Part shown: positions 455 to 61,396 of the stretch, piece after piece
How positions within the stretch are numbered: the first letter of the stretch is position 1
Layout: each line of letters starts with the position of its first letter
Virus record (IMG/VR): IMGVR_UViG_3300033146_000447
Location: 1,450-65,449 of that record
Reading direction: 5' to 3' (one strand)
Source: a virus
Taxonomy: Duplodnaviria > Caudoviricetes
DNA: 64,000 nucleotides
Notes under the pieces: model-generated
The model's input: only the letters and a program-made list of their open reading frames with translations
Told to the model about the DNA's origin: nothing
The model's database searches: none
Position numbers and translations under genes: made by a program

Positions 455-3400
455 ATGGATTGTTTACAAGTAAGTAGTAATGATTTTGACACATCACTTG
501 AAGCCTTAACTAAGGCACTAACAGGAGTCAAAGTTTTAAATAAATTCAACAGAGAGATAACCCCTAGCCACGAATCGGCTAAGGGTATTGCTCTTTCTAG
601 ATTTAGAATGAATGAAGGTCAACCCATGCACCTAGATAGAAAGGGTAATCCATCTAAGCTGTTTGCTGAGATAATGGATATAGTTGATAATTCGTATATT
701 GATGCTACTGCTCTAATATCTGAATTACATACTCCTAACTTTAATGATTGGTATGGTCGGTTTGAGGAAGAACCTTCATATACGCGTAAAGGTAATGAGA
801 TTATAATAAAGCATAGAACAGGCGTTATAGAGAATAATGGTGCAACCTTTGTATTAGCTCCTCATATGCAGGAGAAATCATTACTTGACAATAATGGTAA
901 GTTTGCTAAGGGTAGAGATAAGTATCAATCCGTAGCATTACCTGTACCTACAAGAGATGCTCAAACACAAGCTCAGGCTGATAGAACTATAGCTAGATTA
1001 CTAAACGTTGATAAGTTAAGTGACGGGGCAGTATTAAACAATAGTTTTATTAATAATATAATAGCTAATAGTAATACTACTAATTCATCTCTACTTAATA
1101 TATTAAAACCATTCTTTAATACAGGTAGTATTAAGGGTTGGGAGAGAACTAAAGGATTAACTGTACGTATTGAAGAACATCCTGAGAAAGATTCTACATT
1201 AGATAAAGGTCTAGTAGTAGAAGGTCAGTATAGTAAACGTAATCATAGTATTACATTATATACTAGTTCTCTAAACGGTATCAGTACTACTGAGGTAGCT
1301 AATGAGTTAGCACGTGTATTAACACATGAGGTTATACATAGCTTTACGGCTTCTACTATAGCTTTAGCACAAAGAGGTTTATATAGTATAACTATTGCTA
1401 TGGCTGAGGAGTCAGAAGCAGGTAAGCGTCATACTGCTAGATTTAACGAGTTAACTCTTAAGCAACAGAAAGAGGAATTAACTAAGGAAGAAGTTAATGA
1501 ATATAAAGTATTACAGTTAGCGACTAAGAACAGTAAAGATAAAACATCAGTACGGGTAGCTAAAGCTAAAGAGAGATACTACGCAGCTATTAATAGTTTG
1601 TATGCTAGTGCTAAGCGTAATAAGCCTGACCATATAGCCTATAGTAGTCTTAGTGAGTTTGCTGCTTACGGTATAACTGACGCAGGTATAATGGAAGACT
1701 TATCCAATATGAAGTCTGCTAGAGATAAAGAGACTGGCTTATTTGCTAAGTTTGTTAAACTTGTTAGTGAGTTATTTGATAGTATCTTATCTACATTTAA
1801 CAATAAGTATAGTATTGAAGGTAGTAAGTTAGAAGATTTATTAACTACTACCTTAACATTCGCTAATCATCAGACTCCTACACATCGTAGGCTAACTAAA
1901 GAATCATTAAAGAAGATTCAGACACAAAGACTTAGTTCTCATGATTCACTTTCAAGAGAAGCTAAACTTAATGCTTTAAAAACATTCTATGGTAATATCA
2001 CACGAGACTTAGAAGGTCTTAGAAATGAGATACTAGATGCTAAGTTAGCTGAATCTGTTAGAGGTGCTAATCCTAATGCTAATGATAAAAAGATAAATTC
2101 TCTAATTAAGCAAGAAATAGATAACTTTGTTAAAGGTAAGGTTATAGGTGAGCTTAATACTTATAGTCATGCTTTAACTAAAGAGATAGAAAGTAAGCAA
2201 AAGGTTAAAGCTATATCTTTAAAGAAAGGTAGATTCAGTAAGCAGAAACTAGAGATATTAGATGGTGAAATACTAAGAGTAGAATCTTATAAGTCATTTG
2301 TAGATAATATAGTATTAGAGTTAAATAATACTAATACCCTATGGTCTATGTTTATGAATCATATGACTATCAATAATGAGGATATTATTAAGCTTAATAC
2401 TAAGTTAGATAATGAAGCTCTGAATGGTAATGAATATGATAGTTTATTATCAATGCTTATAGATAAGACTAACTCTAGGAGTATAAAAGAATCAACTTTA
2501 AATGTAGTAGCTGAGACACTTAAAGGTTTAAGTAAGCATCATTTCAACATTATGACTAATTCTACAGAACAGGTAATAAACCCGTTTACAGGATTGAATG
2601 AGTTAATAAATGTTAATGATACACTTATGGACTTATACTCATCATTAGCTAACATTACATCTATGGAGCATATGATGGATAAGTTACATGAGCGTATTGA
2701 GATTAACCCTAGTCTAGCTGCATTAGAGCAAATACTAATAGATGATGCTAATCTTAGGTCTGCGTTTTACGCTAACTTTAATAAAGCTTTACTTCCTACT
2801 TCTTATCAGTTATATCAAAGGATTACTGTACAAGATGAAGACGGTAAGAGTCATACTAGACTAAAGATGTCTACTTATAATAGTATCAAATCATTTAATG
2901 AAAAGAAGAGATTTGAGATACTTAATAGACAATTAATAGGTTTAGATAATAATCTATATAACTTTGATAAGGTTAGTGAGATTATAAAAGAATTAATAGC
3001 TGACAACTCTACTAGGATAATGAATATTAATAATCCTACTAAGAGTAAGAAACTATCAGCTAAACAAATCAATACTAAGATAGGTAAGTTGGATGAAGTG
3101 TTCAATCACTTAGATGTTAACATACCTAGACAAGCAATAGAGGTGGTAATGAATAACTACTATCGTGATAAAGCAGGTAACTATGAGAATGTGGGTATTA
3201 TCCTATCTAAGGTTAAGGATATGATAGAAACCATGAGTTCGGATAGCTCCCCCGTCATAGAAGCAGGAGAGATTAACAAATCCAGCCAACGACATCTTAT
3301 CAATAATTTACGTGATATAGTTGGTCACTTTGATAGTTATATCTTTGATGTGATAGAGCATAGTTATCTTAATACTGAGGGTAATGTAGAGAATGATTTA

Positions 3401-6400
3401 CTACATGCTAGTTTCTTAACTGATTGGATTAGTAAGGCACATGCAGGTAATAAGGATACTGTTGAATACATAGATGAACTTATGCAGACTGCATGGTTTA
3501 ACAACTCTAATTGGTTTATAACTGTAAGCGATACCTATAATAATATTGACAAAAGCGATGAAGCAGAAGTAACTAGAGTTAAAGAGTTAATCGTTAAACA
3601 GATGAAGAAACTAATACTACATAAAGATGGTGGTATTAAGTATGAGGTTACTAAGAAGGGTATTAAGCCTGCTAGTATTGATAATGTTGAGTTCTTAAAT
3701 ACTCAGATATATAAATACATGTCACATCTACATAGGACTAGTAAGAACTCATTAGTTGAGAATGATGAAGGTGAGTATAGAATGGATTATACCCACTTTG
3801 GTTATACTAGTATATTACCTATAATGCAACTATCAGATGCACCTGCTCAGTATAGTATAGAACATACAGTATTTCCGGTTAGAGCTAAAAAGAAGAAAGG
3901 CGTTAATGTAGGTCATGCTATAAGACGAAGTGATAGTATATTCAGAGCTTATAGTAGAGCTGTTATGCAAGAGCGTTCTAGAATGAAAGCTACTTTAGAG
4001 TTAATGATGCAAGCTGATGATAAGGGTAATTATATAACTGACGATAAAGGTAACTATGTTATACAGGAACAATATCTTAATAGTGATGGTTCATTTAACG
4101 TTGACGGCTTAGTTCCTAATAGAGATTATAAGTTAGTAAAGCAGGAAGATGGGTCTAAGAAACCTATGATATATACAATGGATGATAGAGGGTTCATGAA
4201 CATGGAGGGTAATGTATTTACATATTACTCTATACCTAGTTTAAATGAAGAAACTTCTCTATTTAATAATGGAGCTATTAACTTAGTTAATAAGGCTAAT
4301 AGTAGTGACATCATAATGAATCATATAGAACAGTTCTTTGATACAACACTAAAGGATGCTGGTAATCTAAACTTGATGTTATCTAATGAGTTGTTAACTG
4401 ATTTAAAAGAATCAAATGAAGCTATAGCGGATAGACTTATAACATTAGAATATCTATTGAATAGTCATCTTAGTTATATAGAACAACAGAACTTTATATT
4501 CGGAACTGAGAGTGAGTTTCCTTACATGTTAGATACTACTAAGAGAGCTAAAGGTCCGAGTAGTTCTGGATTAGGATTAGCGTTAATAGGAGGTAAGAAG
4601 CAATACAAGTTAGCAGTTGGTAATGAGATACAAGCTAAGAGTCTTAGTGAGGAGTTCATGCAACAATTAGATGATAAGATTGAGAATAAGAAACACTTTA
4701 AGATTATTAAGGATTTCTATAATGGTTCTTTAACTGATATTGCTGATGCTCAGGGATGGGCAACTGTTCAACGTTACGGAGAGATAATGCGTAGTCAAGG
4801 GTTGTTTGATAAGATTAGTTCTATCATGTACGCTGAACTTGTAGATGGGGCTTATGTATATTCTATGAAAGAAGGTATTGCCGTTAATGATATTGTTAAT
4901 GCTTTACAAGTGCTTAAGCCTTTCTTATATGATAGAGTTTATAATAAAGCTACTAATGATTTCCATAGTGTAATGGTTAAGTATTCATTAGTTCCTTTAA
5001 TTCCTGAATTAGTACAAGGTACAGTTTTAGCAGATATGACTAAAGCTATGGAAGAGCAAGGGATAGACGAGTTCATAATGCCTACCGCTATGAAATTAGG
5101 ACAAACAGTAGTTAATGATATATTCAACGGTAGTGAGGTAAATGAGAAAGGATTCGATAACTTGAAAGTGATTAATCTTAATAACTCTGCTTATCGTATT
5201 CAGTTAGAAGTTCCTGACCATATTCGTGATACAGAGAATAAAGCAGGTATTCAGTTAATGAAACTAATACTTACTAATCTTCATCCTGATATTAAATACT
5301 ATGATGGACTTAACGGTAAAGAGGTATTCGATAAGTTTAACGAAAGCGTGGTTAAGTTAATAAACATAACTGGTGAGGAAGTTTCTAAAGATTTAGATAA
5401 TGGTGATTATAAAACATTACTAGAGAGATTAAAACAAGGAGCTACTGATTTGAATCTATCTCCTAATCAGATGAGATATCTAGAAGATGTTGTACCTTCA
5501 ATTACAGGAGTTAAAACTAAAGTACCTGTTACATTCAGTGCTAATTATAGTAAGAACCAAAGTATATTAACAGGTATTCCTAGAAATAATATAACTAATC
5601 TTAAGCTTCCGGGTTTACACGCTGTATTACTTAGTAATGCTATGACTGGTAACAGTATGCAGTTTGAAGAAGCTAAAGGCTCTACTGAATTAAAAGAATA
5701 CTTCAATGATGAAGGTGAGTTAGTATATGAGATACTATTGCCTTATTGGACTAAAGACTTAGTAGTTAATGGTAATGTTGTAGATATTAATCAGCTTACT
5801 GATGCAGCTAAGATGTTATCAGGTTATAGGATTCCTACATCAGGAAAGCATAGTGCTATGAGACTAGAAGTTAAAGGTTTCTTAGATGAAAAACTAGGTA
5901 GTACTGTTATGTTACCTGATTCGGTAATAGACAAGACTGGTAGTGACTTTGATATTGATAGTTTCTATGTTAATACTTTTAATCTTATTCAACGTAATGA
6001 AGAAGGTAGAGTTAAGATAGATGTATTAAAGGAAAGTGATAGAACAGAGGATGATGCATTATTTGATAAGAAGATTACTCAGAATGAAGTAGCTTATATA
6101 TTAGCTAAAGTATTATCTAGCCCTGCATTAGTAGATGAGGTTATGTCTCCTGCTTACTTCGAGTCATTAAAACAAGATAGTGAAGATATAAGGTCTATAC
6201 TAGATAGTAAGACTAATTATAGTGCAGCTAACCCTTTTCAGCAACTAGCGTTTAGGAATGATGCTAATAATGGTAAACGTGTATTAGCTGCGGGTGCGAA
6301 TACTAATATAGGACTTGCAACATTGCAGGGTTTGAAGGCTGCCTTCTCTTACACGGGGAATCTAGTGTCCATCCCATATTCTAAAGCGACTATCGTTGAG

Positions 6401-8623
6401 TTATACGGTAAAGATTGGAAAGCTAAGTTAGAGCGTAAGTACGGTAAAGATAATGTAAAAGTTATATCTAAGGTTGTCGCTCCTACCGATACTGCTGTTA
6501 TTATAACAAGTAAGACTATTGGTTATACTCATAATAATTCATTTACAAATGTATATGGGGATAATATATTAGAATCATTTGCTCAGATAATTGACCAAGC
6601 AGCTGATGCTGTTAAAGCACCACTAGTACCTAACTTAACTATAGAGAGTTTTGGTGTATGGTCAGGATTAGCATACAGTGGGGATACCAAGTTTGCTAAC
6701 TACATGATGGGTCAAGAGGTTATGGCTATGACTTTAGAATCAATGCAAGAATCTAAACGATTGATAGAGCAAGGTAATGGTATTAATGTATTTGGTCAGA
6801 CTAAGATAAAATTAATGAATCGTGTATTCAAAGACTTAACAGTAGATGAATATACTAGACTACTTAAAGCTAAAGGTGTTAAACCTGAGGATAAGTCAGC
6901 AGAGGATATGTTAAAAGTCTATGAAGCAGTTAAGAAGAAAGTAGCTAATTCATATTACAAGAGTATAACTACTAAACAATTCGCTGAGTTAGGATTAGAT
7001 AAGGTGTATGAAGCATCTGATGACTTTACTATGAATACTGAACAACTTAGAGCTAACATTGTAAACTATGCTAATTATAGTGAGCTTAGTACTAGCAAGA
7101 AGTTTAAATATGATAAGAATCAATTCATAATACTTAATAGACTTAAAGATGCTGAACAGATAGGTAAAGACTTAAGAAGTGTTATTGATACATTAAATTT
7201 TGATAAGAAAGGTTTAGGTGCAACGATTGATGAAAATAATAGTATATTAGATAACATTGTAGAGTATAGTAATAATTCAACTAAGGCTATAACTACTAGA
7301 GGTGGTAGTGATTTAATGCAGGCTGTATATCCTAACTTCTTTAAACATTATGTTAATGGTTACGATATAGATTTAACTAAAGGTAAGGTTGAACAGACTT
7401 TAACATCTAGTTACCCTTTATTAGAGACATATCTAATCGAAGGTGTAATGCGATATAAAGAACTATACAAAGACTTTCTACCTTATAGTAGAGATAATAG
7501 AATGTATGCTGAGATATTCGATACTGTTTCTAAAATGTATGGAACTCCTGTTAATGAATATGGAGCTTTAAGCAATCAAATAGTATCTGTTATTAATAAC
7601 TTCGCTATTAGATTTAATTCTCCTAAAGATGCTCTAAATCTATCTAAAGGGGATGAGCATAGACTATTAGGAATAAATAAAGTGTTTAATTTTGATAAAT
7701 CACTTGAATTTAGTAAATTCAGAGAACTGAGTGTAGGTCAACAGTTGGAGTATGTTAAGAAGACTAATAGTAATATAATTAATGATAGTAACCTTCTGTA
7801 TTATCTTATACCTGAAACGGATGCTAATAGAGTAGCTATGAGGGGTTATCATCATATTAACTTTACACTAGTTAGTAAGAATGAATTACAAGAACAAGTG
7901 TTACAAGAAAGCTTTATGTCTATGTTTCAAAGTGAAGACTTATACATTAGAGAGCTTATGATTAACTTAGTTAAGCATAACTTTATAACTGTTAACTTTA
8001 GTAATGCTTATAACTCATTCAATAGAATAATACCTTATGATGTATTAATAGGGGAAACCTTTGAGATACAACATGGTCTATATCAAGTTGAGGATATGTT
8101 TAAAGAAGATGGTAGCGTTCATATGAATGCAGGTATATTAAAGAATTATGTATCTCAGCAGTTATCTGAGAATGCTGCTATTCTACCTGATGCTCCTAGC
8201 TTAGCGATAGGGGAAGAGTATATGTTAAACGCTACTAAGTCTAATGGTTCAAATAGATTCTCACATCGTATTATGAGGTCAGAAGTAGTAAAGGTTGAGG
8301 ATGCTGACGGTAAGTATATGTTCTATAGAACTACTGAGGTTAATAGAAGATATATCGGACCGGATAAGGATGGTATTGGAGACCCAACGTTATACGTAGA
8401 TGACGAAAGAGGTAATCCTCATTTACTACTACAACGATTAGATGTTAGTAATACTACAGCTAGTCTTAATAAACATAATGATGTACAACTAGCGAATATT
8501 AAAGAAGCTATGACGCTTAAGCAAGAAGTTATAATAAGCCCTAAGCCTGTAGATATGGCACGTATAAATGATATATTAAAATCAGAGAAGATAAGTACTA
8601 ATAATATAAGCAATAAATGTTAA
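455..8623 (+). CDS. Virion-packaged two-barrel RNA polymerase (phi14:2 gp66-like) with N-terminal zincin-like domain
   Basis: 2722 aa; GYRIPT...TGSDFDIDS catalytic motif (DFDID at 5945-5959); HEVIH at 1325-1339; sits among giant genes. Confidence 0.9.
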   Translation: MDCLQVSSNDFDTSLEALTKALTGVKVLNKFNREITPSHESAKGIALSRFRMNEGQPMHLDRKGNPSKLFAEIMDIVDNSYIDATALISELHTPNFNDWYGRFEEEPSYTRKGNEIIIKHRTGVIENNGATFVLAPHMQEKSLLDNNGKFAKGRDKYQSVALPVPTRDAQTQAQADRTIARLLNVDKLSDGAVLNNSFINNIIANSNTTNSSLLNILKPFFNTGSIKGWERTKGLTVRIEEHPEKDSTLDKGLVVEGQYSKRNHSITLYTSSLNGISTTEVANELARVLTHEVIHSFTASTIALAQRGLYSITIAMAEESEAGKRHTARFNELTLKQQKEELTKEEVNEYKVLQLATKNSKDKTSVRVAKAKERYYAAINSLYASAKRNKPDHIAYSSLSEFAAYGITDAGIMEDLSNMKSARDKETGLFAKFVKLVSELFDSILSTFNNKYSIEGSKLEDLLTTTLTFANHQTPTHRRLTKESLKKIQTQRLSSHDSLSREAKLNALKTFYGNITRDLEGLRNEILDAKLAESVRGANPNANDKKINSLIKQEIDNFVKGKVIGELNTYSHALTKEIESKQKVKAISLKKGRFSKQKLEILDGEILRVESYKSFVDNIVLELNNTNTLWSMFMNHMTINNEDIIKLNTKLDNEALNGNEYDSLLSMLIDKTNSRSIKESTLNVVAETLKGLSKHHFNIMTNSTEQVINPFTGLNELINVNDTLMDLYSSLANITSMEHMMDKLHERIEINPSLAALEQILIDDANLRSAFYANFNKALLPTSYQLYQRITVQDEDGKSHTRLKMSTYNSIKSFNEKKRFEILNRQLIGLDNNLYNFDKVSEIIKELIADNSTRIMNINNPTKSKKLSAKQINTKIGKLDEVFNHLDVNIPRQAIEVVMNNYYRDKAGNYENVGIILSKVKDMIETMSSDSSPVIEAGEINKSSQRHLINNLRDIVGHFDSYIFDVIEHSYLNTEGNVENDLLHASFLTDWISKAHAGNKDTVEYIDELMQTAWFNNSNWFITVSDTYNNIDKSDEAEVTRVKELIVKQMKKLILHKDGGIKYEVTKKGIKPASIDNVEFLNTQIYKYMSHLHRTSKNSLVENDEGEYRMDYTHFGYTSILPIMQLSDAPAQYSIEHTVFPVRAKKKKGVNVGHAIRRSDSIFRAYSRAVMQERSRMKATLELMMQADDKGNYITDDKGNYVIQEQYLNSDGSFNVDGLVPNRDYKLVKQEDGSKKPMIYTMDDRGFMNMEGNVFTYYSIPSLNEETSLFNNGAINLVNKANSSDIIMNHIEQFFDTTLKDAGNLNLMLSNELLTDLKESNEAIADRLITLEYLLNSHLSYIEQQNFIFGTESEFPYMLDTTKRAKGPSSSGLGLALIGGKKQYKLAVGNEIQAKSLSEEFMQQLDDKIENKKHFKIIKDFYNGSLTDIADAQGWATVQRYGEIMRSQGLFDKISSIMYAELVDGAYVYSMKEGIAVNDIVNALQVLKPFLYDRVYNKATNDFHSVMVKYSLVPLIPELVQGTVLADMTKAMEEQGIDEFIMPTAMKLGQTVVNDIFNGSEVNEKGFDNLKVINLNNSAYRIQLEVPDHIRDTENKAGIQLMKLILTNLHPDIKYYDGLNGKEVFDKFNESVVKLINITGEEVSKDLDNGDYKTLLERLKQGATDLNLSPNQMRYLEDVVPSITGVKTKVPVTFSANYSKNQSILTGIPRNNITNLKLPGLHAVLLSNAMTGNSMQFEEAKGSTELKEYFNDEGELVYEILLPYWTKDLVVNGNVVDINQLTDAAKMLSGYRIPTSGKHSAMRLEVKGFLDEKLGSTVMLPDSVIDKTGSDFDIDSFYVNTFNLIQRNEEGRVKIDVLKESDRTEDDALFDKKITQNEVAYILAKVLSSPALVDEVMSPAYFESLKQDSEDIRSILDSKTNYSAANPFQQLAFRNDANNGKRVLAAGANTNIGLATLQGLKAAFSYTGNLVSIPYSKATIVELYGKDWKAKLERKYGKDNVKVISKVVAPTDTAVIITSKTIGYTHNNSFTNVYGDNILESFAQIIDQAADAVKAPLVPNLTIESFGVWSGLAYSGDTKFANYMMGQEVMAMTLESMQESKRLIEQGNGINVFGQTKIKLMNRVFKDLTVDEYTRLLKAKGVKPEDKSAEDMLKVYEAVKKKVANSYYKSITTKQFAELGLDKVYEASDDFTMNTEQLRANIVNYANYSELSTSKKFKYDKNQFIILNRLKDAEQIGKDLRSVIDTLNFDKKGLGATIDENNSILDNIVEYSNNSTKAITTRGGSDLMQAVYPNFFKHYVNGYDIDLTKGKVEQTLTSSYPLLETYLIEGVMRYKELYKDFLPYSRDNRMYAEIFDTVSKMYGTPVNEYGALSNQIVSVINNFAIRFNSPKDALNLSKGDEHRLLGINKVFNFDKSLEFSKFRELSVGQQLEYVKKTNSNIINDSNLLYYLIPETDANRVAMRGYHHINFTLVSKNELQEQVLQESFMSMFQSEDLYIRELMINLVKHNFITVNFSNAYNSFNRIIPYDVLIGETFEIQHGLYQVEDMFKEDGSVHMNAGILKNYVSQQLSENAAILPDAPSLAIGEEYMLNATKSNGSNRFSHRIMRSEVVKVEDADGKYMFYRTTEVNRRYIGPDKDGIGDPTLYVDDERGNPHLLLQRLDVSNTTASLNKHNDVQLANIKEAMTLKQEVIISPKPVDMARINDILKSEKISTNNISNKC
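3244..3263 (+). repeat. Dispersed GC-rich motif copy (inside vRNAP gene)
   Basis: TAGCTCCCCCGTCATAGAAG. Confidence 0.8.
6346..6364 (-). repeat. Dispersed motif copy, degenerate (inside vRNAP gene)
   Basis: CTCTTACACGGGGAATCTA on + strand. Confidence 0.6.
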
Positions 8624-8629
8624 CAAACT

Positions 8630-11600
8630 ATGATTTGTAAAAGTTCAGTAAAGAATGGAAATGATAAACCTAGCAATCTCTTTAAGAGGTTGTCTAGGAT
8701 TTATGATGAAAAGACAGCACTAGACACATACTATGCTGTTAAAGATAATACATTCAGTGCCGCGTTTGGTAATTGGATGTATAACGCTAAGCATGGTAAT
8801 AACTCTAAAGCCGTAGACGAACAAGGTGAACCTATCCCATTTTGGATAAGTGATTCAGTAGTAGGTCATGTAGGTATTGTAAGACTTAGCACAGAACCTA
8901 CTGAGGATACTGATTCACAAGTAGTGTTCTTATACGATAAAGAATTCGATAATACTAATATTCAAGAAAGTTATGAAGTAGATAGTAATGATTTAGTTTA
9001 TGCTGATTATCTAGCTCCTAATAGTTTAGTATTAAATGAAGAAGGTGAAGTAGTAGAAGTAGCTAACGAGGAAGGTGTTAAGTATAAGCGTCCCGCTCCT
9101 AGTAAAACTGCTAGAAATACTCAATTCTTAGAGCGAAACTTCTCTAAACATCTATCAGAGGTATTAGATAAACATCCTTCTAAACTACCTTTTGTGGTAG
9201 ACACTACTGGTAACTCTCCTTTCACTATTAAGGAAGGAACTGTTATTATAAATCCTGCTTACATACTAAGAGATGATACATTAACTAAGTATGGTACAGG
9301 TATAATAGATTTACTAAGAGAGGTGCATACTTCTGATGAGTTTGAAGATATATTAACTACGGGTGTAGAAGCATTGTTTACTTCTTCTTTCTTCAGACGT
9401 GTGTTTAATAACATTAAAACTAGCAACAAACAAGAGATGCTAGAAGAGTTATTATCTATAGCTATTAATAATACTAAGACTAAGTTACTATTCGATAGTG
9501 ATGTAGATTATAATGCATTTGCTGCATGGAAGAACTTAACTATTAATAGGTTATACAAGTCTATTAACAAAGTAGGTAGAGGTAATGACGTATCATTGAT
9601 TAAGATATTTGAAGATGAAGCTGCTATTAAGACTTTAAAACTTAAGTTAGCGGCACATGAAGAAGGTATTGATACACAAGTTTCAGCTAGAGCTACTAAT
9701 AGTACAGTTGATTATCTTACAGATAAGAGAACTAAGTTACAAGCATTAATTAACGAGTATGATGATTCTAGTAAAGCTAGTGTATTTACAGCAGCTACTA
9801 AAAAGACATATAAAGCATTAACTAAGTTATTACGTGAGTATGAGATAAGTAAAGATAAGTCTAATCTATTTGAAGCATTAATGCTAACTGCTGAATCAGA
9901 TGCTAGTACTATTGAGCAAATGAATAGACTAATGCTTGACTTACAGACTAAGTTTCTACATACTCCTAATAATGAGTTTACTGATGACATGAAGCGTGAA
10001 TTAGCAGACCAATTAAATAACATTAGATTGTTTATTGCTAGTTATGATAATGTTGAAATGCTTACTGATTATAGTAAGACTCTTAATAATAAGGATGAAA
10101 ATGATAAGAAGATACTAAGCCTTATAAAAGAGATAAAAGAGATGAAGGCTAAGGCGTTACAGATACAATCATCGTATGACGCATTAGAGACTAAGTGGAT
10201 AGATACTGTATTAGAAGTGTTACGTAAGAGAGGTGTTGTTATACCTCAGGCTAAGCAATTCCTAGATGAAATGGTAGATATTAATTGGTCTATGGCTACC
10301 TTTGATGGTCTTATGGATAGTGATAATGCATTCGCTAGTCTTATTAAGCAGAACTCTGATACTCGACTTAGAGAGGTTAACTATAAGAAGGGTAGATTAA
10401 TGGTAGGTTTCAATGATGCTATTGCTAAAGCTCTTGGTGCTAATTATAGTAATGATGCTAGTATTGCTTTACATAAAGCAATAACTGATGATAAAGGTAG
10501 GTTATTGCAACGTTACAATCAAGATTACGTAGATGAGTATAACACATGGTTATCATTAATACATTTGTCTAGAGATAACGCTGAGGTTAAGGCTAAGACT
10601 ATGGATGAGTTCGAGCAATGGAAGATAGATAACTTAGAGTTAGAATATACACCTGAGTATTATGCTATATTCAACGCATTGAAGCCTGAATTGAAAGATA
10701 AGGTAAGTGAGCTATCTGCTAGAACTAAAGAGATAACTAAATATAAAGGAGCTACATATAATAATATAGACTTAACTGATAAGGAGAAAGCTACTATAGA
10801 GACTATTCGTAAGGAACGTAAGCAACTTATGGATAAGTATCCTGAGGTAGCTGAATATTATAAGAATGTTTCAAATACATTTAAGCAGAATACATCATCT
10901 AGTTTTTGGTTAGCATATGATAAAGCTAAGGAGCAAGGTATTGAAAGTGAGAATGAGTTCTTAGTTAGAAATAGTGAGATAAGTGATGTATTACAAGATG
11001 AACTTAATAAAGCGTATAAGGTATTAGGAACATCTATGTTTAGACGTTCTATCAAAGGTGAAATGAAACGTAGATTTGGTCACATGACTGATGCTACAGG
11101 TGTATTTAAAGCTAATGAGTTATCTAAGGCTGAGATAGCAGAGATAGGTAGATGGGAGCAAGCATCTCAATTATACTTAGATGAAGAGACATCTGCTATG
11201 GTTACAGAAGCTAGCACCTTTAATGAGCAACTAGCGATAATAGAAGCTCATGGTACTAGTACTGCTACAGGTTCTGTTCCTTATCATATCACTAAAGCAT
11301 TAGCTGTAATTGAGGATAATACTAAGACTATCGAATCTGATTATTATACTGAGCGTTACAAAGAGGAAGAAGCTAAAGGCGAAGATAACTTTAGGGAATG
11401 GTTTGAAGCTAATCATTATATAACACGCGATGGTAAGAAACAAGCATTGCCTATATGGACTACTCAAGTAGCTAAAACTATAAATCATTCAACTACTAAA
11501 GGTAAGTTAAATTATCAGGTTAATCTAGAGGTTAATCCTAAGTTTGTTAATAAGTCATATAAAGGAGAGGATATAAATAATATACCTTATCCTAAAGACG

Positions 11601-13870: not shown

Positions 13871-13887
13871 GGGTTGTGTTTAACGAT

Positions 13888-13930
13888 AAAAAAGAGACTA
13901 GAGCAATTACTTGTTCTAGTCTTCTTATTT
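13888..13930. terminator. Bidirectional intrinsic terminator at the convergent junction
   Basis: Stem AGACTAGAGCAA/TTGTTCTAGTCT flanked by an A-run on the left and a T-rich tail on the right. Confidence 0.7.
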
Positions 13931-13950
13931 GTGTATTTGAATGATTGCAT

Positions 13951-14027
13951 CTCTTCTGACGGGGAAGCTAGAGCCTATCAGACTTACTATAATTCTATTT
14001 GAATAGTCTAGCTTCCCCGTCATAGAG
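13951..14027. repeat. Inverted pair of the dispersed motif
   Basis: CTCTTCTGACGGGGAAGCTAGA (13951-13972) and TCTAGCTTCCCCGTCATAGAG (14007-14027); 16-bp perfect arms. Confidence 0.9.
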
Positions 14028-14075
14028 ATTCGATTATATTAGCTCTCAGCCACTTAGAGGTCATACGTATCAAAC

Positions 14076-14345
14076 TTATCGTGAAACACTACAATAAGCA
14101 TCACCTACTTTATCGGCTATATACGTATGTAAATCTCCTATGGTATCAAAATCAGGAGACCAACTCATATCCCCAAGTATAGGACTGTCTATATATGCTT
14201 TAAATATAACCTTATGCTCTTTAGTAGTACTATGTTTAGATAGATGTTCATCTAGTACTATATAATTATCAGGATATATCCTACATAATTCCTTAAATAC
14301 TCTAAACTTCGTTGGTTTATTAAACCATTTAACTCTTTTTCCCAT
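14076..14345 (-). CDS. Hypothetical protein
   Basis: 89-aa ORF, last gene of the minus-strand operon. Confidence 0.65.
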   Translation of the reverse strand: MGKRVKWFNKPTKFRVFKELCRIYPDNYIVLDEHLSKHSTTKEHKVIFKAYIDSPILGDMSWSPDFDTIGDLHTYIADKVGDAYCSVSR

Positions 14346-14348
14346 AAC

Positions 14349-19915: not shown

Positions 19916-19935
19916 TAGCTCCCCCGTCATAAGAG
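19916..19935 (+). repeat. Dispersed motif copy (intergenic)
   Basis: TAGCTCCCCCGTCATAAGAG. Confidence 0.9.
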
Positions 19936-19947
19936 AAGAATCATTCA

Positions 19948-26910: not shown

Positions 26911-26938
26911 TGACTATCCTCTATACACGGGGTAGCTA
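26911..26938 (-). repeat. Dispersed motif copy (intergenic)
   Basis: TGACTATCCTCTATACACGGGGTAGCTA on + strand. Confidence 0.9.
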
Positions 26939-29251: not shown

Positions 29252-29270
29252 TAGCTACCCCGTCATAGAG
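29252..29270 (+). repeat. Dispersed motif copy (intergenic)
   Basis: TAGCTACCCCGTCATAGAG. Confidence 0.9.
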
Positions 29271-29276
29271 GGAGCA

Positions 29277-34902: not shown

Positions 34903-34922
34903 TAGCTCCCCCGTCAGTAGAG
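34903..34922 (+). repeat. Dispersed motif copy (intergenic)
   Basis: TAGCTCCCCCGTCAGTAGAG. Confidence 0.9.
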
Positions 34923-34984
34923 AAGACACATTCATCTAGTATAATACTGCAATCGAATGCATACAACTTAATGGTATTATTAAT

Positions 34985-38684: not shown

Positions 38685-38712
38685 TGACTATCCTCTTATG
38701 ACGGGGTAGCTA
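38685..38712 (-). repeat. Dispersed motif copy (intergenic)
   Basis: TGACTATCCTCTTATGACGGGGTAGCTA on + strand. Confidence 0.9.
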
Positions 38713-42979: not shown

Positions 42980-43235
42980 TATTATTATTATTTCTAGCAC
43001 TAACCTTAGTCCAGTTAACCTTCTCCTCGCTATCTTAGCTATCTATTACAAGTATCCTATCTCCAACAAGTATTAATCTAATATAAGCTTTAGTGTTTAA
43101 ATATCATTAACTATTAGACGCAGCTAGAGTGGTTAAAGCTAGTATAGATGTTACGGTATAACAAGTATAACTTTAATATCTTTATTAGTATTACGGACTA
43201 TTAGTGTCTATTAGTCTATTTGAGTCTATGACCTT

Positions 43236-43253
43236 CTCTATACGGGGTAGCTA
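43236..43253 (-). repeat. Dispersed motif copy (divergent junction)
   Basis: CTCTATACGGGGTAGCTA on + strand. Confidence 0.85.
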
Positions 43254-43772: not shown

Positions 43773-43800
43773 TAGCTACCCCGTATATAGAGGATAGTCA
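43773..43800 (+). repeat. Dispersed motif copy (divergent junction)
   Basis: TAGCTACCCCGTATATAGAGGATAGTCA. Confidence 0.9.
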
Positions 43801-50457: not shown

Positions 50458-50468
50458 TTTGTGTATTC

Positions 50469-50488
50469 CTTCTATGACGGGGTAGCTA
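50469..50488 (-). repeat. Dispersed motif copy (terminase-portal gap)
   Basis: CTTCTATGACGGGGTAGCTA on + strand. Confidence 0.9.
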
Positions 50489-50515
50489 GAACTATGTATA
50501 ACTTACATTTGACAT

Positions 50516-52876
50516 ATGGGTAAACAAGAGTATTTTGCAGAACAACGGGTTAGCGATACCGTTAAACATTCAGATGCTTATACACGTGAGGTTACAGATG
50601 ACCTTATCAAACGTGCTATATCGCTAGATACTAATAATAAGGATGAAGTAGCATCACTTATAGATGCAATGAATGGTATATTAGATACTAAAGAATACAG
50701 CTATGTATTAAATCCTTATCACTCTGATAATCCTGACTTAACTAGATTTCCTGCTAAGTTACGTAATTATAATATTATTACTCCTATATGGAATAAGTAT
50801 CTAGGCGAAATGATTAAAGCTCGTAAACCTATAAAAGTAGGTGTTAATAATCCTGATAGTATTAATAAGTTTAAGGAGGATTTACATGAGCGGGTTAAAG
50901 CAATAGTTCAGGATAAATTAGCTAGAAGCTTTAATAAGAATATGGGAACTGAGATACCTACTCAGGATAAAGATGTAGATTTAGAAGCATTGATTAATGA
51001 CTACACTGAGAATTGGAATGACCAACGAGCTATATTCGGACAAGAGGCTATTAACAAGTTAGAGAAGGAACTAGACTTAGAGTATAAGTTTTGGGAAGCA
51101 TATTTAGACTGGGCAGCATTAGGACAGTTCTATACAGTTAAAGATGTATATAAGGATGATGTTGTAGAAGACATTGTGAGTCCTTTAGAATACTATCCTA
51201 TAGGTAGTGCTGACTTCGTAGAAGATGATGATGCAGGTGTTAGAATTTATAGACTTAGTATTACTGAAATATTAACTAGGTTTGGTGATAGGCTTAGTAA
51301 GAAAGATTATAAAGAGTTAGAAGACTTAACTGTAGGTTCCGCTCACAATATACCTATTGCTGTACCGCAAGCTTTCAGAATGAATAAGGATGAGAGTATG
51401 GATGATATTACTCGTAACTCGGAGACTAGTGCATTTAGTAATAGTGACCATAGTGTTGAGATAGCTCATTGTGTATTCAAAGCTCCTTTTAGAATTAAGA
51501 TACTTACATATAGAGGTATATTAGGTGATATTAAGACTAAAGAGGTTAGTGATGATTATATTATAGATAGAGAGAATGGTGATTTAGAACTTGCTATAAC
51601 TTGGGTTAATAAGGTATATGAGAGTTATAGATTCGGACCAGAGGGTGGTGCTATCTACATTAATGTTAGTCAAATACTAGTGCAGCGTAGTGACCTTAAT
51701 AATACATCTAGCGTTAAACTACCTTACGGAGGTAAACGATTCATGTTTACTAATGTATATAATCATTCAATAGTTAAAGCTTTATTACCATACCAAATGT
51801 TGTATAATATTATACACAGGTATCGTGAAATGGCAATAGCTAAGAATAAAGGTAAGCTATTAGTTTTACCTAAAGGTATTATTGCTAATGATAATGAGAT
51901 TACTACCGAGAAGGCTTTATATATAATGAAGGCGGATGGTACTATGTTAGTGGATGAGACTGAGGATAACTTTGCTAATGCTATTAATGGTTTAAAGCAA
52001 GTTGATTTATCTGATAGTTCTTATATTGTTTCATTGGGAGGTATTCTCCAAGAGATTAAAGAGGAAGCATGGGATGAGGTTAGTATGAATAGACAACGTT
52101 TTGGTCAATCATATGCTAGTGATGGTAAAGCTACTACTGAGCAAGCTGTATTTAGAGCTAGTGTTGGTTCATTACCTATCAATGAGGTGTTTAATAAAGC
52201 TATGGAGAAAGAGTATGAAGCTCTACTAGACTTTAGTAAGATGGCATGGATAGATGAAGATGGAACTAAGAATAAAGGAGCATTCATAAACAGTGAGAAT
52301 AGATTAGCGTATTTTGCCGTTAATGGTAGACATCATCTAGAAACTAATTATGGTGTGTTTATATCTAATAGTTTTCAAGAAGCTAAGAAGTCTGAATTAT
52401 ATGAGCAACTTGTATTTGCAATAGGGCAACAAGGTAATATGGAGGTTGCATCACAAGGAATAGAAGCAGGTAATAATGCTCAGTTGCGTAAAATCATTAG
52501 GAATTGGCGTAAGGCTGAGGATGCTAAGATTGAAGCTCAACAGCAAGCCGAACAACAACAAGTACAAGCTCAACAACAAGCTGAGGAGATGAAGCAACAA
52601 CGAGAAGATGCTAAGTTCCAAGCTGAGATTGATACTAAGTTGGAGATAGAAGCTATGGGTAATGAGAATGCTATTATTCTTAAAGAGATGGAGCTATCAG
52701 GTAAGAGTGAAGACAATGCTAGTAGAGAGTCTATTGCCGATAGACGTGATGATACTGCTACTCAGGTGGCTGACATCAATGCTCAGGTGCAGAAGTTTGT
52801 TACTAAGTTATCTACAGATAGTAGTGAAAAAGTTGCACGTATGAATAAACAAGACAAATCTAAGGCTACAGAATAA
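50516..52876 (+). CDS. Portal protein
   Basis: 786 aa after TerL; FPAKLRNYNIITP, KLPY, PYQ.LYNI, RQRFGQ; Q-rich C-terminal coiled coil. Confidence 0.88.
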   Translation: MGKQEYFAEQRVSDTVKHSDAYTREVTDDLIKRAISLDTNNKDEVASLIDAMNGILDTKEYSYVLNPYHSDNPDLTRFPAKLRNYNIITPIWNKYLGEMIKARKPIKVGVNNPDSINKFKEDLHERVKAIVQDKLARSFNKNMGTEIPTQDKDVDLEALINDYTENWNDQRAIFGQEAINKLEKELDLEYKFWEAYLDWAALGQFYTVKDVYKDDVVEDIVSPLEYYPIGSADFVEDDDAGVRIYRLSITEILTRFGDRLSKKDYKELEDLTVGSAHNIPIAVPQAFRMNKDESMDDITRNSETSAFSNSDHSVEIAHCVFKAPFRIKILTYRGILGDIKTKEVSDDYIIDRENGDLELAITWVNKVYESYRFGPEGGAIYINVSQILVQRSDLNNTSSVKLPYGGKRFMFTNVYNHSIVKALLPYQMLYNIIHRYREMAIAKNKGKLLVLPKGIIANDNEITTEKALYIMKADGTMLVDETEDNFANAINGLKQVDLSDSSYIVSLGGILQEIKEEAWDEVSMNRQRFGQSYASDGKATTEQAVFRASVGSLPINEVFNKAMEKEYEALLDFSKMAWIDEDGTKNKGAFINSENRLAYFAVNGRHHLETNYGVFISNSFQEAKKSELYEQLVFAIGQQGNMEVASQGIEAGNNAQLRKIIRNWRKAEDAKIEAQQQAEQQQVQAQQQAEEMKQQREDAKFQAEIDTKLEIEAMGNENAIILKEMELSGKSEDNASRESIADRRDDTATQVADINAQVQKFVTKLSTDSSEKVARMNKQDKSKATE

Positions 52877-54425: not shown

Positions 54426-55916
54426 ATGGTTAGAGAACTATATAGTGCTAATTATGAAGCGAAGCAATTCACAGATGAAGATTCGTTGAATAAGTTAATG
54501 CTAAGAAGCCCTGATAAGATTAGCACAAAGCTAACTTATATGTGGGGCAACGGTCAATACGGGAACAAGTTTGGTTTCCTTATGATGACAGAAGGACAGG
54601 GCAACATTAAAGAAACAAATGACCGAGATTACTTTTGGGATACTATGGGTGAAATGCACCATACGTCAGAAGTAGTTGAGTATGATGTTGTTTCTAATCC
54701 AGCACCGGGTCTAGGACATAGTGTATTTGAGGTAACGTTTAGAGACTCGTGGTTAATCCCGCAGTATGGTCTTTTAGCACCTGATGGACAAACACACGCG
54801 TATATTCATGGAGAACCTGAGCAAGTAGAGAATGGGTTTAAGTACACACTAGAGTTAAAAACTGTAGATAACAATGCTTCTTGTGATATAGCAAATCTAT
54901 TGCCTGGCTCGTATTGGGTAATGACTGCTCCTAACGTATCTGAATCAGGTTCGTATGGTAATAGAAGTAATGTAATGGGACCGGGTCGTATGACTAACAT
55001 GGTTTCGTTTAAACGTTATAGTGAGCGTATTCAAGGTAATATGGCTAACAAAGTAGTTAACATCCAATTTAGCGGTAGCGATACTGAGGATGGTAAAGCT
55101 ACTAATTTATGGATGAATGAGCAACAACGTCAGTTCGAGGTTAATATACGTGAGTATAACAACCATGACTTATGGTTATCTAAGTATAACAAAGACGGTA
55201 ATGGTGTGATTCATCTTAGAGATAAGAAGACACAAAAGGTTATCCCTATCGGTGCAGGTATTGAGGAAGCGATTACAGAAGAAGGTAACGTTGATACATA
55301 CGGTTATAGCTTACCTTTACGTAAGTTGAAGAATATCTTATCTGAAATCTTTTGGGGTAAGTCTGATACAGGTAAAGAAGAAGTTGTGATTCATGCAGGT
55401 ATGGGTTTCATTGAAGATTTCGATGATGCTGTAAATAGAGACATTGCAAGTAAAGGGTCAGGATTCTTAACCGCAGTTGGTGACAAGTATGTTACTTCGG
55501 GTAAAGATGGTTTCTTATCATATGGTAATTCATTCCGTCAGTATAAGACTCCCGCAGGTCATATTGTTACAGTGAAACATGATGTAATGTTTGATTCAGG
55601 TCTATTAGGAGAGTTAGGTTCTAAGAATGGTAACTTACACCCTAGAACTAACTATGCTATGAGTTCGCATACAGGTGTTATTATGGACTACTCTACTTAC
55701 GATGGTCAACGTAATATCATGATTACTCAGATGAAAGGTCAAGCTAATATTGCAGGTGTTGTGAAAGGTGCTGCTCCGCTTCCTAAGTCTTGGGGTACTG
55801 TAGCTGATGCTTCATGGGCTACTGAGAAAGATGAAACAGCTTATCATATTAAGCAGTCTCGTTCAGTTAATATTTTAGATGCTACACGCTGCTACATTTT
55901 AAAGGCACAGTTGTAA
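54426..55916 (+). CDS. Major capsid protein
   Basis: 496 aa; conserved crAss position after portal and scaffold; IPIGAGIEE, YKTPAGHIVTVKH. Confidence 0.85.
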   Translation: MVRELYSANYEAKQFTDEDSLNKLMLRSPDKISTKLTYMWGNGQYGNKFGFLMMTEGQGNIKETNDRDYFWDTMGEMHHTSEVVEYDVVSNPAPGLGHSVFEVTFRDSWLIPQYGLLAPDGQTHAYIHGEPEQVENGFKYTLELKTVDNNASCDIANLLPGSYWVMTAPNVSESGSYGNRSNVMGPGRMTNMVSFKRYSERIQGNMANKVVNIQFSGSDTEDGKATNLWMNEQQRQFEVNIREYNNHDLWLSKYNKDGNGVIHLRDKKTQKVIPIGAGIEEAITEEGNVDTYGYSLPLRKLKNILSEIFWGKSDTGKEEVVIHAGMGFIEDFDDAVNRDIASKGSGFLTAVGDKYVTSGKDGFLSYGNSFRQYKTPAGHIVTVKHDVMFDSGLLGELGSKNGNLHPRTNYAMSSHTGVIMDYSTYDGQRNIMITQMKGQANIAGVVKGAAPLPKSWGTVADASWATEKDETAYHIKQSRSVNILDATRCYILKAQL

Positions 55917-59219: not shown

Positions 59220-59251
59220 GGGAGTTATGCTACATGTATAACTCCCTTTTT
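59220..59251 (+). terminator. Intrinsic terminator
   Basis: GGGAGTTATGC/GTATAACTCCC followed by TTTTT. Confidence 0.75.
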
Positions 59252-59272
59252 AATAATTTAAAAACAATAATT

Positions 59273-61396
59273 ATGATATTTAGATTTAATATAGTCAAAG
59301 CTGAAACAGAGTTAACCTTTAGCAATAAGGAATATACTCCTGTAACTGTTGACTTTAGCATACGTAATAAGTCAATAGAGGTCTATAATTCAGACACAAG
59401 TGTTGGAACTACTTTCGATGTTATTGATAGTAATGATAATACTAAAGCTTGCGATATTTCTACTCATGTTTTTAATGATATACCTAACGGGGTAAGGCTT
59501 AGAACCATAACTGTTGATATTGAAGATGGTGAGGTATGGGACTTTGTAGATTTAGAAATAGCTATTAATGATGATGCATATACTCCTTATCTTAATAACT
59601 TTAGGATATTTGGATTTGATACAGGTAATAATAGGAATGATAATTATTTACTAGCACCTTTAGGGGACTTTCCTAATTATAATTCTGCCTTACCTATAGC
59701 TATAGCGGATGCTGAAGCTAATTACAGTTTCAATGCTGATGAGAATTGTGAGCGTATTCTTACCGGGCAGAATAAACCTGATGTTGTAGCTCATAATAAT
59801 GATTTCGTTATAGTTCTTTATAGTTTAGCTATAGCGTCCTTAACTGAGGTTATCATGCAGAATCCTAATATGGCTCTTCTTAATACTAGTATTATTAATC
59901 ATCCTAATGTTAAGATGACGGGTACTTGGTATTTACATGAGGTTACAGGTAATTATACATTAGTAGCTATTGAAAGTGATAACTTAGTAACTATAGGTGA
60001 TATAATAGATAGTGTTACCGAAGATGGCATTACTACGTATACGTTTGAAATACATACTAGCACTAGTGATAACCATATATATGATGGGTTTCAAATGCAA
60101 TTAAATGCTGATATACTAAGTGACTATATAACAGGTACGTTATTTGAAGTGTTACCTGTTATTGTTACTCCTCCGTTATCATCTAACGCTATATCATTTG
60201 TTACAACTCCGTTATTAGTTCAGAATGATTTAAGTTTAGGTGTCCATAGTGATTTTATTGCTTATAGACATCCTCTATTTAATGTTATATATCTGTTTAA
60301 TAATCAGGGGTATGTAGATACTAATCAAGTTAATGAATATAATGTAACGTCTCTACTGACGGGGGAGCTAGTGGAAACACTGGTTGCTAGTAATGGTCAC
60401 TTCTGTATTAAAGAAGATGTTTGTATCACTAGAACATGTAATGGTAAAACTAGTAAACGTATCGTTAAGGGTCAACTTACTTCGCTTAATCATTACATAG
60501 AGGTCGTATCCGATAGTGATTGTACTGAATCATGCTTAGTGCTTGAAACAGGTATAGCTTATGCTAATATGGATATTCCTAGTCTAAGTAAGTTCTGGAA
60601 GAGAGATGATATAGTTACGCTATTCTCAGACTTAGAGATTGAATGGAAGCTACAAGACTTTACAGGTAATGTTATAGAAACTCAAACATCTACATTCGCA
60701 TCACTTACATTTACAAGTGGACACTATGTGATTAACGAGTATGATAGAGAAGATTATAGATTTGATTTTACTATACCTGCGAAGGGTGATTACTTAGTAT
60801 CTTATACTATTAGAGCTACGGCTATGGTTAATGGTGTATTAACTACTATATTGGAATGTTCTGATAATAAGTTAATTCAAGGTGGTAATAAGTATTTATT
60901 CTTACAGAACTCATGTAATGAGGTAGTGATTAAGAATCTAACTGCTAGCCCTATGGATGTTGTTATATATACTCCTAATGCTCAGTATGAATTCGATGAT
61001 GCTGTAACTAGTATTATAGAACCATTGGATAACTTGATTAATGTATTTGCTACAGATGGTATTTACAAAGTAGTTATAGATGGTGATGAATATTACTATA
61101 TCGCTACTTGTAAAATGAATGCTTGTTTACTACAGGTTATTAAAGATAGTATATGTAACTGTAGTAATGATAAATGTGAAGAGAATATACATTATAAAGC
61201 TAATGCTATTATTATACAATATCAAACATACTTATCTTTAATTAGTCATAATAACCCTACATTTAATTTTAATACGGATAGTATTATACGAGATATAGAT
61301 TCTCTACAAGTATCCGATATAAGTCAAATAATGGAACGTATTTCTGATTATTGTACTATTTGTGATGATAAATTTACTAATTGTTCTAGCTGTTAA
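59273..61396 (+). CDS. Structural (tail hub/fibre attachment) protein, Cys-rich C-terminus
   Basis: Beta-rich; likely start MIFRF at 59273 downstream of the terminator. Confidence 0.55.
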   Translation: MIFRFNIVKAETELTFSNKEYTPVTVDFSIRNKSIEVYNSDTSVGTTFDVIDSNDNTKACDISTHVFNDIPNGVRLRTITVDIEDGEVWDFVDLEIAINDDAYTPYLNNFRIFGFDTGNNRNDNYLLAPLGDFPNYNSALPIAIADAEANYSFNADENCERILTGQNKPDVVAHNNDFVIVLYSLAIASLTEVIMQNPNMALLNTSIINHPNVKMTGTWYLHEVTGNYTLVAIESDNLVTIGDIIDSVTEDGITTYTFEIHTSTSDNHIYDGFQMQLNADILSDYITGTLFEVLPVIVTPPLSSNAISFVTTPLLVQNDLSLGVHSDFIAYRHPLFNVIYLFNNQGYVDTNQVNEYNVTSLLTGELVETLVASNGHFCIKEDVCITRTCNGKTSKRIVKGQLTSLNHYIEVVSDSDCTESCLVLETGIAYANMDIPSLSKFWKRDDIVTLFSDLEIEWKLQDFTGNVIETQTSTFASLTFTSGHYVINEYDREDYRFDFTIPAKGDYLVSYTIRATAMVNGVLTTILECSDNKLIQGGNKYLFLQNSCNEVVIKNLTASPMDVVIYTPNAQYEFDDAVTSIIEPLDNLINVFATDGIYKVVIDGDEYYYIATCKMNACLLQVIKDSICNCSNDKCEENIHYKANAIIIQYQTYLSLISHNNPTFNFNTDSIIRDIDSLQVSDISQIMERISDYCTICDDKFTNCSSC
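60351..60370 (-). repeat. Dispersed motif copy (inside structural gene)
   Basis: CTCTACTGACGGGGGAGCTA, exact reverse complement of 34903-34922. Confidence 0.9.

Follow-up and report, generated by a model that had tools for sequence, protein, structure and literature searches.

Dispersed phage-private words acting in cis are a known kind of element. The stoperators of cluster A mycobacteriophages are 13-bp asymmetric repressor sites found across the L5 genome, in spacers and oriented with transcription, and T7-group promoters consist of a word of ~23 nt followed by a purine-rich start, all of them co-oriented with genes. Few viruses of the human gut match crAss-like phages in abundance. Here, we analyze a word that recurs 13 times on the two strands of a window of 64,000 nucleotides (positions 1,450 to 65,449 of the IMG/VR virus record IMGVR_UViG_3300033146_000447; coordinates below are those of the window), which is a fragment of a crAss-like phage. 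By analogy, the nearest published counterparts of this word would be the nick sites of phages tf, T5, and the phiKMV-like group, described as lying on one strand only (in tf, 11 of 14 in the left half) and with motifs given as 5'-TACT/RTGMC-3' for tf, 5'-CGACxxxxxCCTA/CTCCGG-3' for phiKMV-like phages, and 5'-R/GCGCRGG-3' for T5 (PMC3517423). The site of the T7 gp4 primase is reported as 5'-(G/T)2GTC-3' plus flanking context (PMC12839067).

The window contains 13 copies of TAGCTNCCCCGT, six on the plus strand and seven on the minus strand, with the 5' T of the word at 3244+, 6364-, 13970-, 14009+, 19916+, 26938-, 29252+, 34903+, 38712-, 43253-, 43773+, 50488-, and 60370-. A search with TAGCTHCCCCGT allowing at most 1 mismatch returned 12 exact sites and one single-mismatch site (6353-6364, minus strand); these are the same dispersed sites proposed by the initial annotation, which located minus-strand copies by the low ends of the extended motif. 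Chance would provide 0.32 copies, as estimated from 100 dinucleotide shuffles, of which the richest held 3 and none (0/100) reached 13. The whole 65,449-b record holds the identical 13 copies (6 forward and 7 reverse) and no match to a reversed control pattern. A relaxed scan (18 rows) revealed no new copy, its five extras having two mismatches each, with at least one in the CCCCGT core.

On each strand, the copies are evenly spaced, a decisive feature that the initial annotation did not note. The gaps amount to 10765, 5907, 9336, 5651, and 8870 nt on the plus strand and to 7606, 12968, 11774, 4541, 7235, and 9882 nt on the minus strand, with a same-strand median of 8.9 kb and a coefficient of variation (CV) of 0.30. 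None of the 11 same-strand gaps is below 3 kb, versus 3 of 12 among all copies, and opposite-strand copies come as near as 39 bp (13970-/14009+) or 520 bp (43253-/43773+). Such regularity was reached by 0 of 5000 random placements (P < 0.0002 for uniform positions) and gave a P value of 0.009 when strand labels were shuffled. Between neighbors on either strand, the largest gap is 9.9 kb, in agreement with the proposal that gaps do not exceed about 10 kb. Since the regularity exists within strands and not between them, it argues against an orientation-blind duplex-binding or packaging-checkpoint reading, and the even within-strand spacing favors something acting on or along one strand.

The motif is not palindromic, and its orientation does not follow that of the local genes, five copies being sense and eight antisense; both points had been made in the initial annotation and are borne out here. 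Ten of the 13 copies are intergenic, although non-ORF DNA represents 8.5% of the window (P = 4e-9; ORF, open reading frame). The remaining three, a number that agrees with the three coding copies of the initial annotation, are 3244+ and 6364- in ORF 455-8623 and 60370- in ORF 59234-61396.

Each copy is composed of the 12-nt word, a linker of 1 to 4 nt (seven copies have 3 nt, four have 4 nt, and two have 2 nt), and a purine run of 5 to 10 nt, the word and the run spanning 20 to 25 nt in total. TA precedes the purine run in 12 of the 13 copies. Alignment of the 13 copies gave the invariant columns TAG.T.CCCCGT, the base ahead of the C-run being A, C, or T in the window, and the flanks of the word were devoid of conserved columns, terminal repeats, or duplications in this alignment. 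Similarity beyond the word is found only on the downstream side; thus, AGAGGATAGTCAT is common to 26938-, 38712-, and 43773+. Copies 34903+ and 60370-, for which an identity over 20 bp had been claimed, are in fact identical over 21 nt. Folded singly, the copies showed no clear structure in 12 cases out of 12 (z scores of -2.0 to +1.0 against shuffles).

A scan of IMG/VR for the word yielded 50 stretches, many of them on contigs of ~87-95 kb. Five complete genomes (G001 to G005) contain 15 to 21 matches each at ≤1 mismatch, on both strands, and no match to a control word; the motif positions of G005 agree with those of cr271_1 (Intestiviridae, Obtuvirinae). These cr271_1-like relatives carry TAGCTCCCCCGTAGAAGAG, in the linker-less spelling cTAGCTCCCCCGTAGAAGAG, and a weight matrix detected 20 to 28 copies per genome versus 0.15 to 0.55 in shuffles. 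Their proteins are 21-41% identical to those of the window, yet the 12-nt core is the same. The purine run is conserved as purines and not as fixed letters. Their same-strand median gaps, 5.8-7.8 kb, are narrower than that of the window, with CVs of 0.41-0.48 in G001, G002, and G005 (strand-label shuffle, P ≤ 0.0034). At seven positions common to G001, G004, and G005, the word is 87% identical versus 68% for the 45-nt flanks (21 word and 42 flank comparisons), and all 21 G001 copies recur in G002, positions being compared by eye. Three further IMG/VR contigs (G006 to G008) gave single linker-type matches only, which are chance singletons.

Overprinting of the word on genes is widespread in the relatives. 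A regular-expression search of G001, G002, G004, and G005 placed 45 of 68 copies in ORFs, in four frame/orientation classes, and 23 in spacers, compared to 3 of 13 in ORFs in the window. Antisense copies make up 34 of the 45 in coding sequence; the frame is that of -TGEL for 22 of them, of YGGA for 11, and of LLRGS for 1. The other 11 are sense, 10 of which encode SPVE. The 34:11 proportion is consistent with a 3:1 ratio of open frames, two of the three forward frames of the word being interrupted by TAG. Set beside the orthologues of the window, the relatives have their motif codons in linkers, some of low complexity, or at small indels, the word having been written into permissive protein parts; such codons were observed in a 440-aa protein of the relatives (A2 columns 119-124) and in the primase (A3 columns 291-300). 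The idea of a genome-wide signal operating at the DNA level, one of those raised at the outset, is thereby strengthened, given that the coding sequence of the relatives accommodates the word in several frames and at constant gene positions. A single copy position is common to the window and the relatives, namely, after the stop of the giant gene, where the relatives have the word plus a partial inverted word making a stem and the window has an inverted pair.

The cultured phage crAss002 spells the word TTCCCCCRTARAGGAG and contains 29 copies of CCCC[AG]TA[AG]5 versus 0.23 expected, 13 on the plus strand and 16 on the minus strand, with a same-strand median gap of 5.8 kb (CV, 0.42); gaps below 2 kb are absent from the 27 same-strand gaps and account for 9 of 28 among all copies. 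In the prototype crAssphage Carjivirus communis (BK010471.1), the word is ACYCCCCGTAGAGGA, and 16 exact copies of CCCCGTAGAGGA were counted versus 0.12 expected, a test of presence only. The search pattern used for these two phages permitted no linker. Overall, the dispersed word of the window resembles that of the other crAss phages in having a CCCCGT core followed by TA and purines (AGAGGA in both the window and crAssphage), in occurring on both strands far above chance, and in its even same-strand spacing independent of gene direction. It differs by its 1-4-nt linker, absent from the relatives, crAss002, and the exact crAssphage matches; by a variable base (A, C, or T) ahead of the C-run; by being intergenic in 10 of 13 copies versus 23 of 68 in the relatives; and by its median spacing of 8.9 kb versus 5.8-7.8 kb.

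The 19-mer of the relatives, which was used to scan hosts instead of the linker-bearing spelling of the window, had 2 matches in 596 Gb of prokaryote genomes, both on contigs of metagenome-assembled genomes (MAGs). A host signal, such as Chi or an uptake sequence, was therefore rejected, the 19-mer not being abundant in chromosomes. Separately, a contig filed under a "Bacilli bacterium" MAG (JAFRAK010000011.1, L082 in our set) holds the exact 19-mer of the relatives and, at 93,767 b, is as long as a crAss genome; it is probably of phage origin and was placed in the bacterial MAG by binning.

The only close relative, the 10-kb contig L080, was found with the capsid protein as the query (76% identity); the DNA polymerase query had no match among metagenome contigs or viral contigs, and megablast of 20 kb of the window against a phage collection had none either. 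In L080, TAGCTNCCCCGT is absent at ≤2 mismatches, bar one chance-level match. A linker-less CCCCCCGTAGGTGAG does occur within its terminase gene, at a site devoid of the word in the window; it has the same strand as copy 12 of the window and lies about 550 nt from the terminase-portal spacer that houses that copy (L080 1690-1790 was compared with window 49877-49977 and 50458-50515). At this single locus, the copies appear to move, with strand and rough position persisting and the spelling changing fast. The condition named initially for refutation, a lack of conservation in close relatives, gives a mixed outcome: copy 12 has no counterpart in the L080 spacer, a same-strand copy lies ~550 nt away, and the word is kept across deeper divergence.

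From these genome comparisons, we show that the 13 copies represent the spelling, in the window phage, of a lineage-wide crAss-phage signal. Together, our results show that the word is a selected DNA signal that is read per strand, private to the phage lineage, unstructured, and independent of gene direction. Selection on DNA, the lack of structure, the gene-independent orientation, and the within-strand spacing exclude a peptide motif, an RNA fold, an ordinary promoter or terminator, and an orientation-blind duplex binder. The initial annotation had likewise dismissed a simple promoter or terminator, and we concur, given the 5/13 sense copies in the window, the 11/45 sense copies in the coding sequence of the relatives, and the 12 unstructured copies. 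The functions that it listed (nicks, ejection or packaging checkpoints, replication or recombination cues, and a virion RNA polymerase site) span too wide a range to be confirmed.

Several specific candidates were tried and rejected. A peptide motif (STGEL) is contradicted by the same DNA being read as YGGA, LLRGS, or SPVE in other frames. The reverse complement of the "cat" linker would provide ATG-ACG-GGG, the beginning of a leader peptide (MTGEL...); that linker is present in 7 of 13 copies and in none of the relatives. No RNA element was supported, as the window yielded 0 Rfam matches and 0 tRNAs, and a likeness of the word to a tRNA D-arm (TAGCTC...TAGAG) was set aside for want of a tRNA and of a supporting fold. 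A hairpin promoter of the N4 type or an intrinsic terminator was discarded because the single copies were unstructured and only the inverted pair at 13941-14037 folds.

The copies, together with this long hairpin, are arranged along the window as follows.

3244..3263, plus strand: copy 1, TAGCTCCCCCGT with linker cat and AGAAG; inside ORF 455-8623, sense, read as SSPV.
6342..6364, minus strand: copy 2, degenerate, TAGATTCCCCGT with linker gt and AAGAGAAGG; inside ORF 455-8623, antisense.
13950..13970, minus strand: copy 3 (N=T); intergenic, ORF 8630-13870 having its stop 88 nt earlier; makes up the left arm of the inverted pair.
14009..14028, plus strand: copy 4 (N=T); intergenic, 55 nt short of where minus-strand ORF 14076-14345 ends; completes the inverted pair as its right arm.
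13941..14037, no strand assigned: long hairpin that copies 3 and 4, arranged back to back, form where convergent genes meet; -46.3 kcal/mol, z -7.9.
19916..19940, plus strand: copy 5; antisense, separated by 11 nt from the ATG of the ligase gene, in a 43-nt spacer between genes of the minus strand.
26917..26938, minus strand: copy 6 (N=A); in the spacer directly downstream of the DNA polymerase gene, sense.
29252..29274, plus strand: copy 7 (N=A); in the spacer between ORF 29277-29801 (uracil-DNA glycosylase [UDG] family) and ORF 29004-29240 (directly upstream of the DNA polymerase gene), antisense.
34903..34926, plus strand: copy 8; intergenic, antisense, 31 nt from the ATG of ORF 33237-34871.
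38691..38712, minus strand: copy 9 (N=A); intergenic, sense relative to the minus-strand block.
43232..43253, minus strand: copy 10 (N=A); in a 1.4-kb ORF-free divergent region, directed into the minus-strand block; core of a 59-nt arm, 43199-43257.
43773..43794, plus strand: copy 11 (N=A); 162 nt ahead of the first plus-strand gene, directed into the plus-strand block; core of a 59-nt arm, 43769-43827.
50466..50488, minus strand: copy 12 (N=A); in the 58-nt terminase-portal spacer, antisense.
60350..60370, minus strand: copy 13; inside ORF 59234-61396 (720 aa), antisense, read as LTGEL.

The 59-nt arms around copies 10 and 11 are inverted and 75% complementary, their likeness continuing downstream of the word. 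The ORF-free region to which they belong (42540-43950) separates divergent gene blocks and is a candidate origin or control region. It also contains a set of three to four direct repeats, AT-rich and ~42 nt long, at 42746, 42755, 42869, and 42969 (spacing of about 100-114 nt), a second repeat pair at 42844/42937, and a GC-rich patch at 42680-42745; copies 10 and 11 flank its right-hand part.

CheckV estimated a completeness of 69%. PHROG matches identified the terminase (48112-50457), the portal (50516-52876), and the major head protein (54426-55916), and identity between the capsid protein of the window and those of gut crAss-like phages does not exceed 41.6%. The plus-strand block 455-13870 is made of two giant ORFs, 455-8623 and 8630-13870. 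The former (2722 aa) encodes a virion RNA polymerase of the two-barrel DFDID type, with DFDID at residue 1831, a motif described as catalytic in crAss virion RNA polymerases (preprint 10.1101/2020.03.07.982082). Both ORFs match, at 22-30% identity, parts of single giant proteins of the relatives (4600-4760 aa), and the giant gene appears to be split differently in the window and in the relatives. The minus-strand block 14076-42542 is a replication module that comprises a dNMP kinase, an ATP-dependent ligase, a thymidylate synthase, a primase, a DNA polymerase, UDG, and a Dda-like helicase, and the plus-strand block from 43947 contains the morphogenesis genes. The primase, ORF 21358-22965, matches PHROG 12622 "DNA primase" with an E value of 4e-40; its Toprim match is weak, under the curated cutoff (E values of 0.0065-0.0076), and phmmer yielded nothing meaningful among PDB sequences. 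The window showed no T7-like single-subunit polymerase.

Our working interpretation, which we put forward tentatively as plausible without considering it probable, is that the word may be a fixed start site for strand synthesis. A new nucleic acid strand would start at the word and run toward the purine run. The word would be bound by an enzyme of the phage, which could be its Toprim-type primase or its two-barrel RNA polymerase. Opposite the run, where the template is rich in pyrimidines, this enzyme would start a purine-rich primer; elongation would then fall to the phage DNA polymerase and joining of the pieces to the phage ATP-dependent ligase. Since each strand would have its own even set of starts (about 8.6 kb apart here and 6-8 kb apart in the relatives), every stretch would be near a start whatever the direction of the fork, and transcripts may also start from copies that head gene blocks, for example those of the divergent pair 43253-/43773+. 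We favor initiation because the layout is shared with T7-type promoters and primase sites: a conserved word, a linker that varies from 1 to 4 nt, and a run kept as purines, with additional similarity only downstream. The gene content of the phage also points this way, with a primase, a DNA polymerase, an ATP-dependent ligase, helicases, and a DFDID polymerase. The T7 gp4 sites provide a parallel, with a recognized but uncopied part beside a copied stretch, a purine-first primer, and a context that selects a subset of sites; they differ in being 5 nt long and frequent, whereas the word spans about 20 nt and occurs once per ~8.6 kb per strand, and the Toprim match of the window primase is weak. 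Furthermore, the phi14:2 homolog of the virion polymerase is reported to start RNA de novo on single-stranded DNA (preprint 10.1101/2020.03.07.982082).

A number of observations weigh against this interpretation. According to the same preprint (10.1101/2020.03.07.982082), the phi14:2 polymerase also transcribed single-stranded M13 DNA with no evident sequence specificity in the experiments described. With its 20-25 nt and its single occurrence per ~8.6 kb per strand, the word of the window is unlike a primase site. Known primases use dense sites of 3-5 nt, not words of ~20 nt placed 8 kb apart. Simple bidirectional replication needs starts on one strand per arm, and both strands carry the word throughout. 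The spacing rule is not absolute, as the plus strand is without a copy for 20 kb (43773-64000), and regularity is weak in G004 (CV of 0.65; strand-label shuffle, P = 0.12). G001 and G002 being near-identical, the counts for the relatives are not all independent. Copy 12, moreover, is missing from the L080 spacer. Finally, in the window and four relatives, sense copies are missing over 17-32 kb in the late (capsid/tail) module, with antisense spacing kept; the gaps extend over 43773-64000 in the window, 6838-23884 in G001, 63518-84401 in G002, 42753-66470 in G004, and 1-31901 in G005. The presence of TAG in two of the three frames of the forward word may be the reason for this late-module gap.

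The strongest competitors of a start site are a nick signal and a promoter. In the former case, as in T5, phiKMV-like phages, and tf, a phage nickase would cut a single strand, at the word or close by, in DNA that is mature or being replicated, and the resulting 3'-OH may start strand-displacement synthesis. We regard such a site-specific nick as unlikely, despite a word that is short, asymmetric, phage-private, read on one strand, and present in about a dozen copies per strand, and despite the ATP-dependent ligase of the phage. The motifs of tf, phiKMV-like phages, and T5 are similarly private asymmetric one-strand words of about 5-14 copies found in genes and spacers, that of phiKMV being likewise long and in two parts in the published description (PMC3517423); they are, however, confined to one strand and unevenly placed, whereas the word of the window is distributed evenly over both (6 plus and 7 minus). 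Nicks 39 bp apart on opposite strands (13970-/14009+) would make a fragile duplex, a conserved purine run at a variable distance would be superfluous for an enzyme that cuts at a constant one, and no nickase was named in Pfam and PHROG scans, which included no dedicated search and left most window ORFs unannotated. Distinctly unlikely, in our opinion, is a promoter for a phage-directed RNA polymerase serving gene expression or the production of regulatory RNAs, with the word upstream and the purine run initially transcribed. A ~12-nt word with a purine-rich start indeed resembles T7-group promoters, which are also long and private with a purine-rich tract and present in a dozen or more copies per genome; these are co-oriented, whereas the word runs against genes in 8 of 13 copies in the window and in 34 of 45 coding copies in the relatives, and the polymerase of the window is of the two-barrel DFDID type. 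The sense intergenic copies 43253- and 43773+ head both divergent blocks with 59-nt arms that extend downstream, three copies share the same downstream extension (26938-, 38712-, and 43773+), the sense intergenic copies of the relatives lie 11-297 nt ahead of the next gene start on the strand of the word, and the lack of sense copies in the late module of the window and four relatives would be expected if sense copies there brought on late expression prematurely. Nevertheless, crAss002 has sense copies inside late genes, and an even two-strand spacing serves no role in gene expression. The fit to transcription data is also poor: the early transcripts of the phi14:2 virion polymerase are presented without a common upstream motif, middle and late genes being assigned to the host polymerase (preprint 10.1101/2020.03.07.982082), and strand-specific RNA sequencing of crAss001, a different phage from that of the window, is reported to give three modules that follow ORF orientation (PMC8375218).

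The word could also be recognized by a helicase-nuclease or translocase, of phage or host, that tracks one strand and alters its behavior at the word, thereby protecting or marking phage DNA in a Chi-like manner. A strand-specific signal whose orientation matters, long enough to be absent from cellular genomes (the 2 matches per 596 Gb) and spaced so evenly that the DNA loss from any break would be bounded, is compatible with such a self-tag, as are the exonuclease (PHROG 298) and weak RecT-like match of the window and the Gam-like nuclease inhibitor, RecT, and PD-(D/E)XK exonuclease annotated in crAss002. We nonetheless find it improbable, since the purine run and variable linker are left unexplained, no candidate reader was found, and Chi sites are host signals of 5-8 nt. 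Even less probable is a site for an architectural, packaging, or ejection protein that organizes duplex DNA, for instance the crAss IHF-like protein. The site is dispersed and long, and copies lie directly upstream of the annotated IHF-like gene in crAss002; but a protein indifferent to orientation should space all copies evenly, whereas regularity exists within strands only and opposite copies are 39-520 bp apart, and the portion of the genome represented in the window revealed no IHF-like gene. The stoperators are comparable in being asymmetric, private, and dispersed in dozens of sites, and are different in that the orientation of the word is independent of genes and the relatives write it through coding sequence. 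As for a selfish miniature element, i.e., a mobile GC cluster copying itself into spacers and permissive gene loops, the absence of the terminase-portal copy from L080 and the coincidence of motif codons with small indels or low-complexity linkers in the relatives would suit it. We give it almost no credence in view of the even same-strand spacing, the positions kept in G001, G004, and G005 and for 21 of 21 G001 copies in G002, the flanks free of conserved columns, terminal repeats, and duplications, and a core conserved across phage families.

In the literature on crAss-like phages, we found no published description of the word, the supplementary motif lists of the phi14:2 preprint, which concern a different, sense-oriented middle-promoter motif, being set aside. 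Neither the even two-strand spacing nor the gene overprinting is known for dispersed words of this kind. The window adds a natural variant that bears a linker and is mostly intergenic, and the flexible 1-4-nt linker limits how rigidly a reader can span the word and the purine run. Since cultured crAss002 and the prototype crAssphage have their own spellings, the question is open to bench testing. Should the word be a fixed start site for strand synthesis as we favor, an extension that we consider speculative, and rather doubtful as yet, is that crAss-like phages would replicate by a mode undescribed for double-stranded DNA viruses, with hard-wired starts every 6-9 kb per strand and a purine-rich primer made by a Toprim primase or a two-barrel RNA polymerase, the word being the cis half of a private code that would coevolve with its reader across the order. 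The retention of the 12-nt core at 21-41% protein identity, in several frames of essential genes and evenly on each strand, implies a conserved reader and a strand-by-strand process.

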